Part shown: positions 8,862 through 31,214 of the stretch, in pieces
How the letters are laid out: each line of letters begins with the position of its first letter
Position numbering within the stretch: the first letter of the stretch is position 1
Source of the DNA: a virus
Direction: 5' to 3' (one strand)
Length of the DNA stretch: 31,809 nucleotides
Virus record (IMG/VR): IMGVR_UViG_3300045988_016297
The notes under the pieces: model-generated
Database searches by the model: none
What the model saw: the letters and a program-made list of their open reading frames with translations, nothing else
What the model was told of the DNA's origin: nothing
Translations under genes and position numbers: made by a program

Positions 8862-9424
8862 CTAGAATGAGTCAAAATCTGACTGTGTGGCCTTGCGTGT
8901 CTCTGATTTGTTTTCAGTACGCAAATTCACATAATCTGTTTGGTAATCTAGAGCCATTCCAATAGAAATGTGCTTCAGATCATCAATTGTAAGCCCGGTC
9001 TCTTTACAGCAAGAAAGGTAGGATTCTACTGTAAAGATTTCATCACTGGCTGATTCTGACTCATCTGGTTTTTTTTTGATGTCATCGTGTCGTTGATCAT
9101 TTCCATTAGAATTGGAGCGATGTCCTGTAATGGAAATTCCTCCATCTCCATGAAAAATTGTTCATAAGGCTTGATGTGTGGATTCCCTGATTTAACGAAA
9201 ACCCAAAACAAGCGATTGAAGAAGGTCATGTCAAAGTTGGCCAGCATGTTGATGTCAACTTCATTGTTGCCATTCTCAGCCATTGCCATGATATTTTGGT
9301 TTGAGAGCATTCCAAATAAATCTTGGAAGAAATCTTTCCCAAACTCACTCTTATAAGCGATAGGAGTGTAAGCATTGGTTACAAGCTCATACTCCTTTTC
9401 ACTAATGATCACACTCTTACGCAT
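8862..9424 (-). CDS. Tail assembly chaperone fusion (gpGT-like) made by a programmed -1 frameshift
   Basis: After the A9 run, the -1 frame stays open: ...KKKPDESESASDEIFTVESYLSCCKETGLTIDDLKHISIGMALDYQTDYVNLRTENKSETRKATQSDFDSF, ending at a TAG at 8862-8864. This fills the otherwise non-coding gap before TMP. Confidence 0.75.
9026..9424 (-). CDS. Tail assembly chaperone (gpG-like, 0-frame product)
   Basis: 132-aa ORF between the major tail protein and TMP. GGAGG RBS 6 nt upstream of the ATG. It contains the slippery run near its 3' end. Confidence 0.85.
   Translation of the reverse strand: MRKSVIISEKEYELVTNAYTPIAYKSEFGKDFFQDLFGMLSNQNIMAMAENGNNEVDINMLANFDMTFFNRLFWVFVKSGNPHIKPYEQFFMEMEEFPLQDIAPILMEMINDTMTSKKNQMSQNQPVMKSLQ
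9069..9077 (-). promoter_or_regulatory. Slippery sequence for the G/GT -1 ribosomal frameshift (A9 run, ...ACA UCA AAA AAA AAC C...)
   Basis: Nine consecutive T on the plus strand (A on the mRNA) sit 13 codons before the 0-frame stop. The -1 frame is open for about 70 codons beyond it. Confidence 0.7.
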
Positions 9425-17265: not shown

Positions 17266-17311
17266 ATCATAATATTTTATTTTATGTAAGAAAACAAGAG
17301 CTTATTTTCTC
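17266..17311 (-). promoter_or_regulatory. Left copy of the duplicated hairpin + promoter element (putative late promoter)
   Basis: 38/46 identical to 19164-19209 with no gaps. On the minus strand: inverted repeat GAGAAAA-N10-TTTTCTT, then -35 TTGTTT (17292-17297), a 17-nt spacer and -10 TATTAT (17269-17274). Confidence 0.55.
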
Positions 17312-17316
17312 ATCTT

Positions 17317-18456: not shown

Positions 18457-18999
18457 TTAAATAACAAAGTTTCTTAAAGCATCATCTAGTTCAGCTTGTT
18501 CAATTCCAATATATCTCAGCGTTATGGCTGGAGATGAGTGATTGAACATCTTCTGTAGTGTGCCTACGTCCTTTGTTTTATTGTAGTATTTGTATCCAAA
18601 TGTTTTGCGCATTGTATGAGTTCCCACATTGTCAATGCCCAATTCTTCAGCAGCTTCATGGATGATCTGGTAGGCTCGTTCACGAGTGATGGCCTTGTTT
18701 CCTCCTTGCCTGCTCTTGAATAAGAAATGATGGAATGGCTTCCCTTCAACATACTTTCTCATTTCTCGTTTCAGTTCTTTCGTCATTCTACGGGAAATCT
18801 GTTTGCCAGTCTTTCTCTCTCGTAGTTTGATGTGCCATCCTTGAACATCTTTGACTTTGAGTGTGAGGATATCACCAACACGCAAGCCTGTATTGAGACC
18901 AGTGATGAATAGCATGTAATACATTTCATTCCATTCTCTCAGATAGTCTTTCATCGCTTGAATGTCATCTGTGTCTTTAATGGGTGAGACCTCTTCCAT
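18457..18999 (-). CDS. Short tyrosine recombinase (catalytic domain only, about 180 aa)
   Basis: All catalytic signature residues can be placed: R in GLRVGD, K in ERKTGK, H-x-x-R in THTMRKT, H in FNHSS and Y in TLRYIG. Only about 25 aa precede the catalytic domain, so there is no core-binding or arm-binding domain. The likely start is the ATG at 18999 (MEEVSPIK), after GAGGGGG; the track's start at 19035 is less likely. Confidence 0.8.
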   Translation of the reverse strand: MEEVSPIKDTDDIQAMKDYLREWNEMYYMLFITGLNTGLRVGDILTLKVKDVQGWHIKLRERKTGKQISRRMTKELKREMRKYVEGKPFHHFLFKSRQGGNKAITRERAYQIIHEAAEELGIDNVGTHTMRKTFGYKYYNKTKDVGTLQKMFNHSSPAITLRYIGIEQAELDDALRNFVI

Positions 19000-19041
19000 A
19001 CGGTTCCCCCTCTCTATATTAAAATTGATTTTCATAAGGAA

Positions 19042-19113
19042 TTGGGAGTGCAGGAATCGAACCTACTCCTACTGTTTTCCGTCAGTACGCTCTACCATTT
19101 GAGCTAACTCCCT
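19042..19113 (-). tRNA. tRNA-like element with a non-canonical anticodon arm (possible pseudo-tRNA or specialised tRNA)
   Basis: The minus strand reads (A)GGGAGT-TA-GCTC-AAATGGTA-GAGC-G-TACTG-ACGGAAAA-CAGTA-GGA-GTAGG-TTCGATT-CCTGC-ACTCCC(A)-A. The D arm and the T arm (GGTTCGATTCC) are canonical. The anticodon stem closes an 8-nt loop lacking U33, the variable region is only 3 nt, and the acceptor stem is 6 bp or 7 bp with an A:A 1:72 mismatch. No CCA is encoded. Confidence 0.5.
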
Positions 19114-19163
19114 AACAACTATTAGGAGACCCTCTCATCCATGATTTGATTATCATGAACAAG

Positions 19164-19209
19164 ATTATAGTATTTTATTTTGTGTGAGAATACAATAACT
19201 TATATTCTC
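19164..19209 (-). promoter_or_regulatory. Right copy of the duplicated hairpin + promoter element
   Basis: It starts 4 nt after the arpU-like stop codon. On the minus strand: inverted repeat GAGAATA-N10-TATTCTC (19186-19192 / 19203-19209), then -35 TTGTAT (19190-19195), a 17-nt spacer and -10 TACTAT (19167-19172). A TATAAT at 19164-19169 overlaps the -10. Confidence 0.55.
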
Positions 19210-19212
19210 AAT

Positions 19213-19617
19213 TTATAGTACACCTTTCATTCTGGCATACGTTTCCAAAATGCCAGCACGCTTGCGGTAAATTGTAGCGTTGCTAACAAATTGCTTTTCT
19301 GCAATTTCTTCCCAATCAAGATTTGCTTGTCCCCATCTTAGGTAGAATATATCAAGCTGTTCCCATGTCAGTTGCTTCTTAAATGATTCAACAGTTTCTT
19401 TGAACAGCTCAAGATTCTTCAAAGTCACATCAGTAGCAAATTTCATCACTGTGTTTTCTGTTGGTTTGCTGATTCCTGATTTTCCTCCCCCAACTAGATC
19501 ATCACCGTTCTTTGCCATCAATTCTGCTTTGCGTGTCCAGATTGCCCGGTCAATTCCACGAAAATTGAATAATTCTTGGTCAAGGTTAAGCAATTCTCTA
19601 TTGTTTAATTTTTTCAT
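19213..19617 (-). CDS. ArpU/RinA-family late transcriptional regulator
   Basis: 134 aa. It has a C-terminal sigma-region-4-like HTH (..FVSNATIYRKRAGILETYARM..). Its position as the last regulatory gene before the packaging module is typical of Gram-positive phage late activators. Confidence 0.75.
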   Translation of the reverse strand: MKKLNNRELLNLDQELFNFRGIDRAIWTRKAELMAKNGDDLVGGGKSGISKPTENTVMKFATDVTLKNLELFKETVESFKKQLTWEQLDIFYLRWGQANLDWEEIAEKQFVSNATIYRKRAGILETYARMKGVL

Positions 19618-28312: not shown

Positions 28313-29416
28313 ATGATCAAAAAATATAAAAAAGGCGATGGTTTCGCCTACTATTTTAAAGCCTATCATGGAATTGATCCTTTGACTGGCAAGAAGATTA
28401 TAACTCTTAGGCGTGGTTTTAAAACCGAACGTGAAGCTAGACTTGCTGAAGCTAAGTGTTTGGCTGATTATGAGAAGAAAACCTTTAGAAGCAGAAATAC
28501 AACTACTACTTTCAAACAGGTATATGAAACTTGGAAAGAGCATTATAGAAATACAGTTAAAGAATCTACCTATGTTAGCCAAATTGACAAAGCTGACAGA
28601 CTTATTATCCCTCATTTTGGAGATAAGCCCATAAATAAAATTACTCTATCTATGTGCCAAGCTCAGGTCAATAAATGGGCTGAGGATTATAAGAGATTTT
28701 TTGGGATCATCAGCATTGCTAATCAGATATTTGATTATGCAATATCTATGGAATTAATTGATAGCAATCCAATGAGAAAAACTCTAAAACCAAAAAGAAC
28801 AAAGAAAGATAAGGAAGAGCTTGAACAATTCTATAATAAAGAAGAACTAAAAACTTTTTTCGAAATGGTCCAGGAACTTGATGATATAGAAATGCTCACT
28901 TTCTTCCGTTTATTGGCTTTCACAGGAATGAGGAAGAACGAAGTAGGCGCATTAAGATGGACTGATATTGACTTAGAGAGTGGGCAACTAAAAGTTAATC
29001 AAACACTAGCAAAGGGAGAAAACAATAAAATCATATTTCAAACACCGAAAACGAAAAAAAGCCAGCGAACAATATCGCTGGATCCAAAGACTATTGATAT
29101 TTTGAAAGATTGGCACAAATACAGTACAAAAGGCTTATTATTTAAAAATGAAACAGGCAGCCCTAAAAGTATTGTGCATGTCAATAACTTGCTGAACCGA
29201 GTTTGGAGAAGGTACCCTGATTTCAAGCGTATCACTCCTCATGGATTCAGGCATACACATTGCTCCCTACTGTTTGAGGCTGGAGCAACTATCAAAGAGG
29301 TCCAGGAACGACTAGGACATGAAAATATACAAACAACGATGGACATATATGCTCATGTAACCCAAAAAGCAAAAAATGAAGTTGCTGACAAATTTGCTTC
29401 CTACATTGGTTTTTAG
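28313..29416 (+). CDS. int: Tyrosine integrase (full length, 367 aa)
   Basis: It has an N-terminal arm-binding-type region (KKGDGFAYYFKAY..DPLTGKK), a SAM-like core-binding region and a catalytic domain (..TGMRKNE.., ..HGFRHTH.., ..LGHENIQTTMDIYAHV). It is adjacent to the attP-like repeats. Confidence 0.92.
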   Translation: MIKKYKKGDGFAYYFKAYHGIDPLTGKKIITLRRGFKTEREARLAEAKCLADYEKKTFRSRNTTTTFKQVYETWKEHYRNTVKESTYVSQIDKADRLIIPHFGDKPINKITLSMCQAQVNKWAEDYKRFFGIISIANQIFDYAISMELIDSNPMRKTLKPKRTKKDKEELEQFYNKEELKTFFEMVQELDDIEMLTFFRLLAFTGMRKNEVGALRWTDIDLESGQLKVNQTLAKGENNKIIFQTPKTKKSQRTISLDPKTIDILKDWHKYSTKGLLFKNETGSPKSIVHVNNLLNRVWRRYPDFKRITPHGFRHTHCSLLFEAGATIKEVQERLGHENIQTTMDIYAHVTQKAKNEVADKFASYIGF

Positions 29417-30422: not shown

Positions 30423-30460
30423 TAAAACAAAAAGCCCTACTAGCTAAATGCTAGTAGGGT
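30423..30460 (-). terminator. Rho-independent terminator after the endolysin gene
   Basis: CCCTACTAGC-ATTTA-GCTAGTAGGG (10-bp perfect stem), extended by a G:U pair whose 3' C leads into UUUUUGUUUU on the minus strand. Confidence 0.85.
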
Positions 30461-30476
30461 TGAATTATATTTTTTA

Positions 30477-31214
30477 TTATTCTAGCATACCCCATAGATC
30501 TGTACGGTTGCCGGCTTCATCCACGGGACCGATAGCCATATAGTTACGGTTGCCTGAAACTCCCACGTAAGAGATCCAGCGATAGCCCGCATTTGTACCC
30601 TTGGAATCATAATGAACCTTTTCGCCCGGTTGATAAGTTGCCACGATTTCACCGGTTAAATCCGGATAACGGCGGACATTGATAGGACTATCACCAACTG
30701 TAAAGGTAGCTTCTTCAGGGAAAAACGGTACTTCATGACTTTCCATGACTTCCGTAATAACTTCTTTAAGTTCTTCTTTTGGAAGTGGTTCGCCTTTAGG
30801 TCGAAAAGCCGTAGGATATAAAGCAGAATAAGGGAAGGCCAAAAGATTGAAAGCACCCCCACCATTTGGCCCAGGTGTTCCGCCTTGGTTTTGGCCAAGG
30901 AACCAGCCTTGGTTTCCGTCAATATCACTTACAAACATAGCGACGTGAGAAACCGGGGTCAATTCGTTTTCTGTGAAAATACAAACTTCTCCGCCTTCTA
31001 ATTTTTCTACTTCGTCGAAGTAATCAAGAATTCCATTACTATAACGCTGTTCCCAAATATCTTTAACATAGCCGGAATTGGTACAGTTAGCAAAGGGGAG
31101 GCCTAGCCAAATACAATATTTAGCATATCCGTCCCAGCATTGCCACCCGTAAGATCCATCAATATCAAAGCCATATCCTAGCACTTCATTTTGAAATAGT
31201 TGAATTTTATCCAT
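30477..31214 (-). CDS. Endolysin: N-terminal CHAP domain + C-terminal SH3-like cell-wall-binding domain
   Basis: ..YGWQCWDGYAKY.. contains the catalytic Cys context and ..VSHVAMFV.. the His of the CHAP domain. A Pro/Glu-rich linker follows. The C-terminus is ..INVRRYPDLTGEIVATYQPGEKVHYDS..GYRWISYV.., typical of SH3b. GAGGTG RBS. Confidence 0.85.
   Translation of the reverse strand: MDKIQLFQNEVLGYGFDIDGSYGWQCWDGYAKYCIWLGLPFANCTNSGYVKDIWEQRYSNGILDYFDEVEKLEGGEVCIFTENELTPVSHVAMFVSDIDGNQGWFLGQNQGGTPGPNGGGAFNLLAFPYSALYPTAFRPKGEPLPKEELKEVITEVMESHEVPFFPEEATFTVGDSPINVRRYPDLTGEIVATYQPGEKVHYDSKGTNAGYRWISYVGVSGNRNYMAIGPVDEAGNRTDLWGMLE

Follow-up and report, generated by a model that had tools for sequence, protein, structure and literature searches.

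Can a phage tRNA gene whose anticodon loop is enlarged to 8 nucleotides (nt) and lacks U33 be a working gene, and what would it do between a late promoter and a recombinase gene? The question is raised by the element at positions 19042 to 19113, on the minus strand, of virus record IMGVR_UViG_3300045988_016297 (IMG/VR), a stretch of 31,809 nt that is here called the window. The window is a full phage genome in circularly permuted form, that of a temperate Streptococcus siphophage, the holin and lysin genes of which span the window ends; the nearest isolate is Streptococcus parasanguinis phage Javan372. The element is one of two alternative sequences found in the same slot of related phages, here termed allele B (the element in the window) and allele A (a tRNA-Lys). 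The pattern of substitutions in allele B points to selection on a complete tRNA, which we tentatively take to act at phenylalanine codons.

On the minus strand, the element reads AGGGAGU UA GCUC AAAUGGUA GAGC G UACUG ACGGAAAA CAGUA GGA GUAGG UUCGAUU CCUGC ACUCCCA A. It is 72 nt long, from A1 to A73, and CCA is not encoded (the sequence runs CCCAA-UUCC across the 3' end). The D and T arms, the 8-nt loop without U33, the 3-nt variable region, and the A1·A72 mismatch, all described from the letters alone in a first-pass annotation, were recovered at the same coordinates (Table 1). Of the checks proposed there, ARAGORN called 19041 to 19114 (minus strand) as tRNA-??? with the 4-base anticodon ggaa, and the tRNA family of Rfam (RF00005) matched over the full length, the 40.4 bits exceeding the gathering score of 29 (E = 2e-5). 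No other tRNA was called in the 31.8 kb of the window. Both the minimum free energy (MFE) structure and the centroid structure are the cloverleaf with the 8-nt loop (-24.1 kcal/mol; z = -3.2); among 200 shuffled sequences, 1 folds equally well. The acceptor stem of 7 bp, D stem of 4 bp, and anticodon and T stems of 5 bp each, together with a score above the family threshold, are those of a tRNA, and the nucleotides of the tertiary contacts (U8, A14, G18, G19, A21, G53, U54, U55, C56, A58, and C61) are all present in the window copy. The A·A mismatch at 1:72 is invariant in ~40 unique sequences of both alleles and is unusual for an elongator tRNA. Pairing of A73 with the U at position -1 is possible, and ARAGORN picked this register (19042/19043 and 19113/19114).

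Homologous elements were found in related cassettes by pattern scans of viral contigs, metagenomes, and species-representative genomes and by two recombinase-anchored surveys. The tRNA is restricted to one subgroup of these phages (temperate, from oral Streptococcus, S. parasanguinis type), in which the order of the slot is fixed: late activator gene, late promoter, tRNA, and small recombinase gene. Allele A has the arm G-AUUGA-[C/U]UUUUAA-UCAAU-U[G/U/A]GUU and is called tRNA-Lys(UUU) with a 7-nt loop by ARAGORN; it scores 70.6 bits with the Rfam tRNA model and is 89% to 92% identical to the tRNA-Lys genes of Escherichia coli. The tRNA-Lys(UUU) of Javan372 (MK448920, about 11.8 kb) shares with allele B the locus, promoter, leader, trailer, A1·A72 mismatch, and lack of an encoded CCA, and its acceptor, D, and T arms match those of allele B fully or almost fully. 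In the alignment of the two, the flanks and these three arms match, whereas the anticodon arm and variable region are wholly different: the arm of Javan372 is AUUGA-[C/U]UUUUAA-UCAAU, its loop of 7 nt includes U33, and 5 nt make up its variable region, compared with another stem, an 8-nt loop, and a 3-nt region in allele B. Because some allele B sequences (e.g., that of locus L014) have a body identical to that of allele A, allele B derives from allele A, by wholesale replacement of positions 27 to 48, i.e., the anticodon stem, loop, and variable region. The identity of a tRNA would then be changeable in one step, with the anticodon arm swapped as a module.

No third allele was detected in the viral, metagenome, or genome scans, and the INPHARED phage collection contains the Lys allele only. 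A donor for the allele B arm was sought as well. In the genome scan, the arm was confined to two S. parasanguinis prophages and to chance matches within coding sequence; the phage database and E. coli genomes gave no match, and a plasmid match was an ordinary tRNA-Val. Silent copies of either arm within 3 mismatches, as expected of a shufflon or cassette, were absent from the genome, and cassette switching was rejected on this ground.

The two alleles coexist. There are 64 allele B loci and 46 allele A loci, with some redundancy (at least 28 unique allele B sequences), and both alleles co-occur in the same metagenome data set. Mean distances between recombinase genes are alike within and between alleles (A-A, 0.071; B-B, 0.064; A-B, 0.071), the nearest neighbor of an allele B locus carries the other allele in 16 of 64 cases by the recombinase gene and in 21 of 61 cases by the activator gene, and one activator-gene sequence is common to both alleles. 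No flanking gene was found to covary with the allele, the neighbors being alike for A and B. Because allele B is at least as frequent as allele A and lies on intermixed backgrounds, it is not one clone; it has spread by recombination over phage backgrounds and diversified there. An 8-nt-loop tRNA lacking U33 is a common allele in the phages of a human oral commensal, competing at one locus with a textbook tRNA-Lys. Some allele A copies differ in the acceptor stem: in about 10 of the 46, the 3' acceptor strand is ACUCUCA, giving G3:U70 alongside G2:C71 and A73; these include the copies at L001:4301-4373 (Javan372), L012, L019, L028, L050, L061, L062, and L069. G3:U70 is the classical identity pair of alanyl-tRNA synthetase, and therefore these copies might take alanine as well as lysine.

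Whether allele B is under selection was addressed with an alignment of 28 unique sequences. Standard pairs fill 95.1% of the pair cells; the sole constant exception is A1·A72, common to allele A, and the only other broken stem cell is one A13·G22. Each helix has one pair that is changed on both sides: 6:67 (GC/AU), 11:24 (CG/UA, with UG intermediates), 28:42 (AU/GC), and 49:65 (GC/AU, with GU intermediates). The observed values are equaled in 0 to 1 of 500 column shuffles, and slid controls pair at 29% to 57%. The anticodon and T stems are 100% paired in the 28 variants, and U8, A14, G18, G19, A21, G53, U54, C56, A58, and C61 are invariant. The D-loop ranges from 7 to 9 nt in length; 8 nt in the anticodon loop and 3 nt in the variable region are constant. 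Because nucleotide diversity is 0.064 in allele B, compared with 0.025 in allele A and, in the adjacent recombinase gene, about 0.18 at third codon positions and 0.175 at synonymous sites, allele B is constrained, less tightly than the Lys allele. Judged from these comparisons, the population-genetic evidence for a function of allele B is strong.

These data bear directly on the idea, raised in the first-pass annotation, that the element is a decayed tRNA remnant. In its fullest form, this would be a nonfunctional relic, a tRNA-Lys gene broken by one illegitimate recombination and hitchhiking with an essential promoter and recombinase gene. The low covariance-model score, the features outside the normal tRNA rules, the variants with C55, and a diversity above that of allele A and of the immediate flanks would suit such a relic. 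It would not be expected to show four independent compensatory pairs or complete pairing of the anticodon and T stems in 28 variants, nor to be free of deletions and of changes in anticodon-loop length with its tertiary nucleotides invariant. Its diversity is one third of that at neighboring synonymous sites, and allele B is at least as frequent as allele A, on intermixed backgrounds. We consider the relic highly improbable, and the notion of decay is contradicted by the full length of the element, by the compensatory substitutions in all four helices among at least 28 variants, and by the sister allele, a high-scoring tRNA-Lys.

A second suggestion was that of a structured processing signal. 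If the cloverleaf were a processing or stability module only, it would be a site at which RNase P and RNase Z cut back the leader of the late transcript and define the 5' end of the mRNA for the recombinase. The tRNA does sit where relatives have a structured leader with a terminator-like hairpin, it comes first in the transcript and is not followed by a terminator, and the arm swap was tolerated, as it would be if the anticodon content were irrelevant and hence swappable. RNase P and RNase Z require only the half of a tRNA formed by the acceptor and T arm. The compensatory changes in the D and anticodon stems, the fixed anticodon loop beside a drifting D-loop, and the invariant GAA all lie outside that half, and there is one replacement arm only, not many. 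The suggestion is thereby weakened, since compensatory change has preserved the D and anticodon stems too, and a role in processing alone is improbable. Because these stems are maintained and not just the acceptor/T half, the selective agent should be one that reads the whole L-shape and the anticodon arm; it could be a synthetase, the ribosome, or a tRNA-binding protein.

The anticodon loop itself has the consensus [A/G][C/U][G/A]GAA[A/G]A. Positions 4 to 6 (GAA) and 8 (A) are invariant; positions 1, 2, 3, and 7 vary (A/G, C/U, G/A, and A/G, respectively), the variation being concentrated in the 5' half, and a purine is kept after GAA, as expected of position 37. The second position is C, except for U in L088 and L136. 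By the canonical rule, the loop of an elongator tRNA has 7 nt and U33; here, all of the at least 28 variants have 8 nt, with the purine after GAA present. Similarly, the canonical variable region has 4 to 5 nt and provides nucleotide 48 as the partner of nucleotide 15, and here it has 3 nt in all variants, as GGA, GGC, GAC, GAU, GAA, or AAU, with A, C, or U as the last base opposite A15. The first-pass annotation had likened the loop to that of tRNA-Phe with U33 changed to G plus one extra A. The likeness holds for GAA and the final A, which are invariant in the population, and not for the derivation, as the layout is NYR + GAA + RA (N, any nucleotide; Y, pyrimidine; R, purine).

An assignment to tRNA-Lys by anticodon failed: the body is derived from tRNA-Lys and A73 is present, but the loop has no U-containing anticodon. 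A tRNA-Lys has the anticodon UUU or CUU, U35 being the main determinant for lysyl-tRNA synthetase. Peterson and Uhlenbeck are said to have identified in 1992 U20, U59, U60, and G44 as further identity nucleotides of E. coli tRNA-Phe. Allele B has the Phe features GAA-R-A, A73, U20, U59, U60 (in most variants), and G44, but GAA is one position off register in the 8-nt loop. Phenylalanine codons occur at about 50 per 1,000 in these phages.

The 8-nt loop also raises the possibility of frameshifting. The first-pass annotation had proposed a four-base GGAA anticodon and a +1 frameshift-type tRNA. A dedicated +1 frameshift (quadruplet) tRNA, with either GGAA or GAA preceded by a SufJ-like 5' insertion, would read UUC-C/U or any UUY and shift the ribosome +1 at a specific site, so as to make an alternative phage or host protein late in infection. 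The 4-base anticodon called by ARAGORN and the strictly conserved 8-nt loop, which is that of a frameshift suppressor, fit this proposal, as does the behavior of SufJ, a tRNA with a 5' loop insertion for which zero-frame binding to the A site is of normal affinity and is followed by a +1 shift (PMC4238358). Among UUCC, UUCU, and UCCG/A sites on both strands of the whole window, the only ones joining open reading frames (ORFs) of at least 60 codons were two irrelevant UCCA overlaps, and a per-gene scan of the whole window for +1 extensions of at least 15 codons at UUCC, UUCU, or UCCG returned none. In full, the scan for frameshift targets covered one allele B genome, that of the window, with host genes and the far ends of the other allele B genomes lying outside it. 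Over all loci, there were 2 candidate sites in 562 for allele B and 4 in 446 for allele A, i.e., no excess for B. The window genes contain 57 in-frame UUC-C/U sites, and allele B phages show no avoidance of UUC-C/U (34%, compared with 33% in allele A phages). Thus, no cognate site needing a +1 shift, and no ORF join or extension that depends on a quadruplet, was found in the window, and UUC-C/U is not depleted. In addition, variant L111 has AGAA, which would alter the quadruplet read, and the tail chaperone gene has its recognizable programmed shift site in a run of A's, which would need tRNA-Lys. The frameshifting role proposed earlier is unsupported by these data, and we consider it distinctly improbable.

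The A-run just mentioned is in the gene for the tail assembly chaperone (ORF 9026-9424, minus strand), in which nine A's occur in UCA AAA AAA AAC at about 9074 to 9086, shortly before the stop codon. The alternative frame after it is open to about 8860, in the direction of the tape-measure gene. The arrangement resembles the common programmed frameshift, which would here depend on tRNA-Lys. The possibility that the slippery site tracks the allele was rejected, as the A-run is present in this allele B phage.

In our preferred reading, held tentatively, allele B is a functional phage-supplied tRNA that acts at UUY (Phe) codons, is most likely charged by phenylalanyl-tRNA synthetase (PheRS), and has a 5' loop half that may be nuclease resistant. 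This reading is favored because the invariant GAA followed by a purine and A corresponds to the 3' half of the tRNA-Phe loop and because tRNA-Thr1 and SufJ provide precedents. Yeast mitochondrial tRNA-Thr1 has an 8-nt loop, UUUUAGGU, decodes triplets (CUN as Thr), and is served by the synthetase MST1 (Su et al. 2011, PMC3113583). Like allele B, it has a natural 8-nt loop arranged as 3+3+2, and it descends from a tRNA of different identity (His) and has been retained across species. Unlike allele B, it is organellar, has U before the anticodon, and originated by point changes or insertion, whereas in allele B the whole arm was replaced and C usually stands before the extra purine. The frameshift suppressors SufJ, SufA6, SufB2, and SufD also have an 8-nt anticodon loop (PMC4238358, PMC7803779), and the extra nucleotide of SufJ likewise lies on the 5' side; however, they are laboratory-selected suppressors of frameshift mutations, whereas allele B is a natural, widespread polymorphism with no frameshifted target or codon-context footprint found.

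The tRNA of the preferred reading would be transcribed late, together with the recombinase mRNA. On the general pattern of tRNA maturation in Firmicutes, RNase P would cut after U(-1) and RNase Z after A73, as expected of a CCA-less precursor with a U-rich trailer, and CCA would be added after cleavage. GAA would be presented as a Phe-type anticodon in a 3+3+2 loop (NYR-GAA-RA) with the extra base on the 5' side. Several anticodon nucleases cut in the 5' half of the loop, and the altered 5' half of allele B (C33 plus the extra purine) might leave it little susceptible to cleavage by a host nuclease of the anticodon loop. Allele B would in that case be the counterpart of the tRNA-Lys allele against a different host threat. 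Phage tRNAs can evade anticodon nucleases via loop changes (van den Berg et al. 2023, PMC10264068; Azam et al. 2024, PMC11555353). As in those tRNAs, the loop of allele B departs from the host type outside the triplet, its variation lying in the 5' half; unlike it, they have 7-nt loops, the isotype of the depleted host tRNA, and a demonstrated nuclease, whereas the loop of allele B is enlarged and its isotype is predicted from the sequence. A tRNA that evades or decoys such nucleases had been suggested in the first-pass annotation and is a candidate reading here, with the concentration of variation in the 5' loop half and the co-circulation of two alleles on shared backgrounds as indirect evidence. 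Taken further, the slot could be a two-allele counter-defense locus kept polymorphic by host immunity, in which allele A replenishes tRNA-Lys and allele B decodes or shifts at Phe codons while being immune to an undescribed streptococcal anticodon-loop nuclease. We regard this extension as doubtful; if true, allele B would be the first natural tRNA of a bacterial virus for which function is demonstrated despite an anticodon loop of 8 nt without U33.

Several observations weigh against a translating tRNA-Phe. U33 is missing from most allele B variants, a variable region of 3 nt is out of the ordinary for an elongator tRNA of bacteria, and the score of allele B is about 40 bits, compared with 70.6 for allele A. 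U55, which is near universal, is replaced by C in 2 of the 28 variants. The invariance of GAA is statistically weak, as it would arise by chance in about 7% of cases with 4 of the 8 loop positions variable, and a reading of the loop as GGA/AGA (Ser type) or as GGAA would fit the same data. Allele B is 2.5 times more diverse than allele A and also exceeds its own immediate flanks (0.026 to 0.031), which could mean a weaker constraint than that on a working translator. No donor tRNA for the arm was located in the genome, phage, and plasmid scans, and we know of no host nuclease that targets tRNA-Phe.

Much of this would be accommodated by a non-decoding tRNA mimic, i.e., an RNA that folds and is processed like a tRNA without use in protein synthesis and that offers its anticodon arm as a binding surface. 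It might soak up or block a host tRNA-directed defense protein or a tRNA-modifying enzyme or, as a permanently uncharged "tRNA-Phe," switch T-box or stringent-response sensors of the host. A mimic would keep the whole L-shape and yet have features ill suited to translation (a loop lacking U33, a variable region of 3 nt, C55 in two variants, and about 40 bits), it would be more diverse than the translating allele A if only the shape and a short motif mattered, and it would leave the phage genes without a codon-context footprint, all as observed. The purine at position 37 and the canonical tertiary nucleotides are nonetheless kept, as in working tRNAs, and the loop is unlike that of tRNA-Lys, so that it would not be a decoy for a Lys-specific nuclease. 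The 3' loop half GAAAA is already abundant via the ordinary tRNA-Phe, and a pairing or sponge role would therefore add little. There is no partner protein nearby, and neither Pfam nor PADLOC detected a phage-encoded tRNA-directed toxin or defense gene. On balance, a mimic is possible, though rather unlikely. Two pairings of the loop were also considered. Loop-loop pairing with tRNA-Lys (AAAA with UUUU) was set aside, as the ordinary tRNA-Phe presents the same GAAAA, and pairing with UUCC in the trailer was set aside, as the trailer is identical in allele A.

To our knowledge, natural tRNAs with anticodon loops of other than 7 nt are very rare and, outside organelles, are mostly laboratory frameshift suppressors or engineered quadruplet decoders. 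We found no earlier description, in the literature searched, of a natural enlarged-loop tRNA that is encoded by a phage and is one of two competing alleles. On 8-nt-loop tRNAs of phages or streptococci, the literature searched yielded only a passing remark that some phage tRNAs have nonstandard loops with no known frameshifting (Atkins 2016, PMC5009743). Matched allele A and allele B phages with identifiable lysogens constitute a natural experiment on how ribosomes and synthetases handle enlarged loops and on whether the frame is kept or shifted, and one that also bears on loop enlargement as a means by which phage tRNAs escape tRNA-targeting immunity.

Given the neighboring tyrosine recombinase gene, the element had also been proposed to be a former attachment (att) site of that enzyme. 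Allele B does adjoin a tyrosine recombinase gene, as do the att-site tRNAs of tRNA-dependent lysogeny (Guerrero-Bustamante and Hatfull 2024, PMC10865867); unlike those, it is complete and structurally selected and lies beside a recombinase of 180 amino acids (aa) that has the catalytic domain only. This recombinase lacks the DNA-binding arm and core domains and occurs in hundreds of phages without a tRNA; among PH10-like loci, a tRNA is absent from at least 79 of 80. The true integrase of the phage, a full-length one, is encoded at 28313 to 29416, and no tRNA fragment was found near it or its phage attachment site (attP). The att-site proposal was rejected accordingly, the tRNA being complete and structurally selected and the real integrase, with a tRNA-free attP, lying 9 kb away; tRNA-dependent lysogeny (PMC10865867) was rejected because attP has no tRNA fragment. 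A hitchhiking pseudogene or att remnant is in any case a poor fit because of the covariation, the fixed loop lengths, the invariant core, and the intermixed backgrounds.

The features of the element and its surroundings are listed in Table 1.

Table 1. Features of the allele B tRNA and of the adjoining late region (window coordinates)
Feature	Position	Strand	Evidence or remarks
Allele B tRNA	19042..19113	-	ARAGORN, Rfam RF00005, MFE cloverleaf, covariation in 28 homologues
Acceptor stem AGGGAGU/ACUCCCA, A1·A72 unpaired		-	Sequence
U8 and A9 after the acceptor; D arm GCUC-AAAUGGUA-GAGC; then G26		-	Sequence
Anticodon stem-loop	19070..19087	-	Stem UACUG/CAGUA (19087-19083 + 19074-19070)
8-nt anticodon loop ACGGAAAA	19082-19075	-	Without U33; invariant GAA = 19077-19079
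Variable region GGA, 3 nt, unusually short	19067..19069	-	Compared with 5 nt (UGGUU) in allele A
T arm GUAGG-UUCGAUU-CCUGC, discriminator A73		-	Sequence
5' leader between promoter -10 and tRNA	19114..19163	-	Near-identical at allele A and allele B loci
Late-promoter-like element	19164..19210	-	Inverted repeat GAGAAUA..UAUUCUC, then AAAAUAAAAUACUAUAAU; TATAAT at 19164-19169
Second late-promoter-like copy	17266..17312	-	Upstream of HNH, TerS, and TerL genes
Late transcriptional activator gene (Alt-like, phrog_36)	19213..19617	-	PHROGs E = 6e-22; immediately upstream of promoter
Small tyrosine recombinase gene, 180 aa, catalytic domain only	18457..18999	-	Pfam Phage_integrase E = 9e-22; phrog_216

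The genome also encodes a cI-like repressor and an ImmA-like protease, and its packaging and head genes are at 11.5 to 17.2 kb. The two promoter-like copies, each of 47 nt (direct repeat family D1), are 83% identical and consist of an inverted repeat, then an A-rich stretch and TATAAT or TATGAT; in the upstream copy, TATAAT ends 51 nt upstream of the tRNA. Between them, the copies flank a module of the tRNA, the recombinase gene, a DUF1642 gene, and two small ORFs. The element is conserved in relatives both with and without the tRNA. Because it has no good -35 region, it is probably activator dependent, and the Alt-like activator, encoded immediately upstream, probably binds to it; in PH10, IPP11, and Javan73, this activator is annotated as a transcriptional regulator or activator. 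The recombinase gene is the first protein gene after the tRNA, with a ribosome-binding site (RBS), GAGAGGGGG, at about 19006 to 19014. The promoter repeat upstream of the tRNA and the lack of a terminator before the recombinase gene had been pointed out in the first-pass annotation, and both hold: no terminator-like site was found between the tRNA and the recombinase start. For this reason, the co-transcription that it considered likely is plausible, the part that stands being its fit with the absence of a terminator. The recombinase protein is 96% to 100% identical in the best 80 loci of each of two viral-contig surveys (about 360 matches each; 359 viral loci in one of them). The third codon positions of its gene are highly diverse (pi, 0.18) despite the near-identical protein, and the gene heads the late transcript beside the HNH and terminase genes.

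In relatives PH10, IPP11, Javan73, and Javan110, as well as in 79 of the 80 PH10-like loci, the tRNA slot holds a leader that ends in a terminator-like hairpin and a U-run. In these tRNA-less relatives (L079:2177-2367, which is PH10; L080; L078; L081; and 79 of the 80 loci L162 to L241), a hairpin GCCAGC..GCUGGCUUUUUG with its U-run lies between the promoter element and the recombinase RBS, which suggests control by read-through or antitermination. A fourth version of the slot (L129, L134, L137, and L138) has neither the promoter element nor the tRNA, and a hairpin AAGCCAGC..GCUGGCUU joins the activator gene to the recombinase RBS. Elsewhere in the window, a hairpin-rich region at 30423 to 30527 (minus strand), downstream of the lysin gene, gave a subthreshold match to the Rfam trpB noncoding RNA motif (35.1 bits, the gathering score being 59; E = 0.008) and is probably just a bidirectional terminator.

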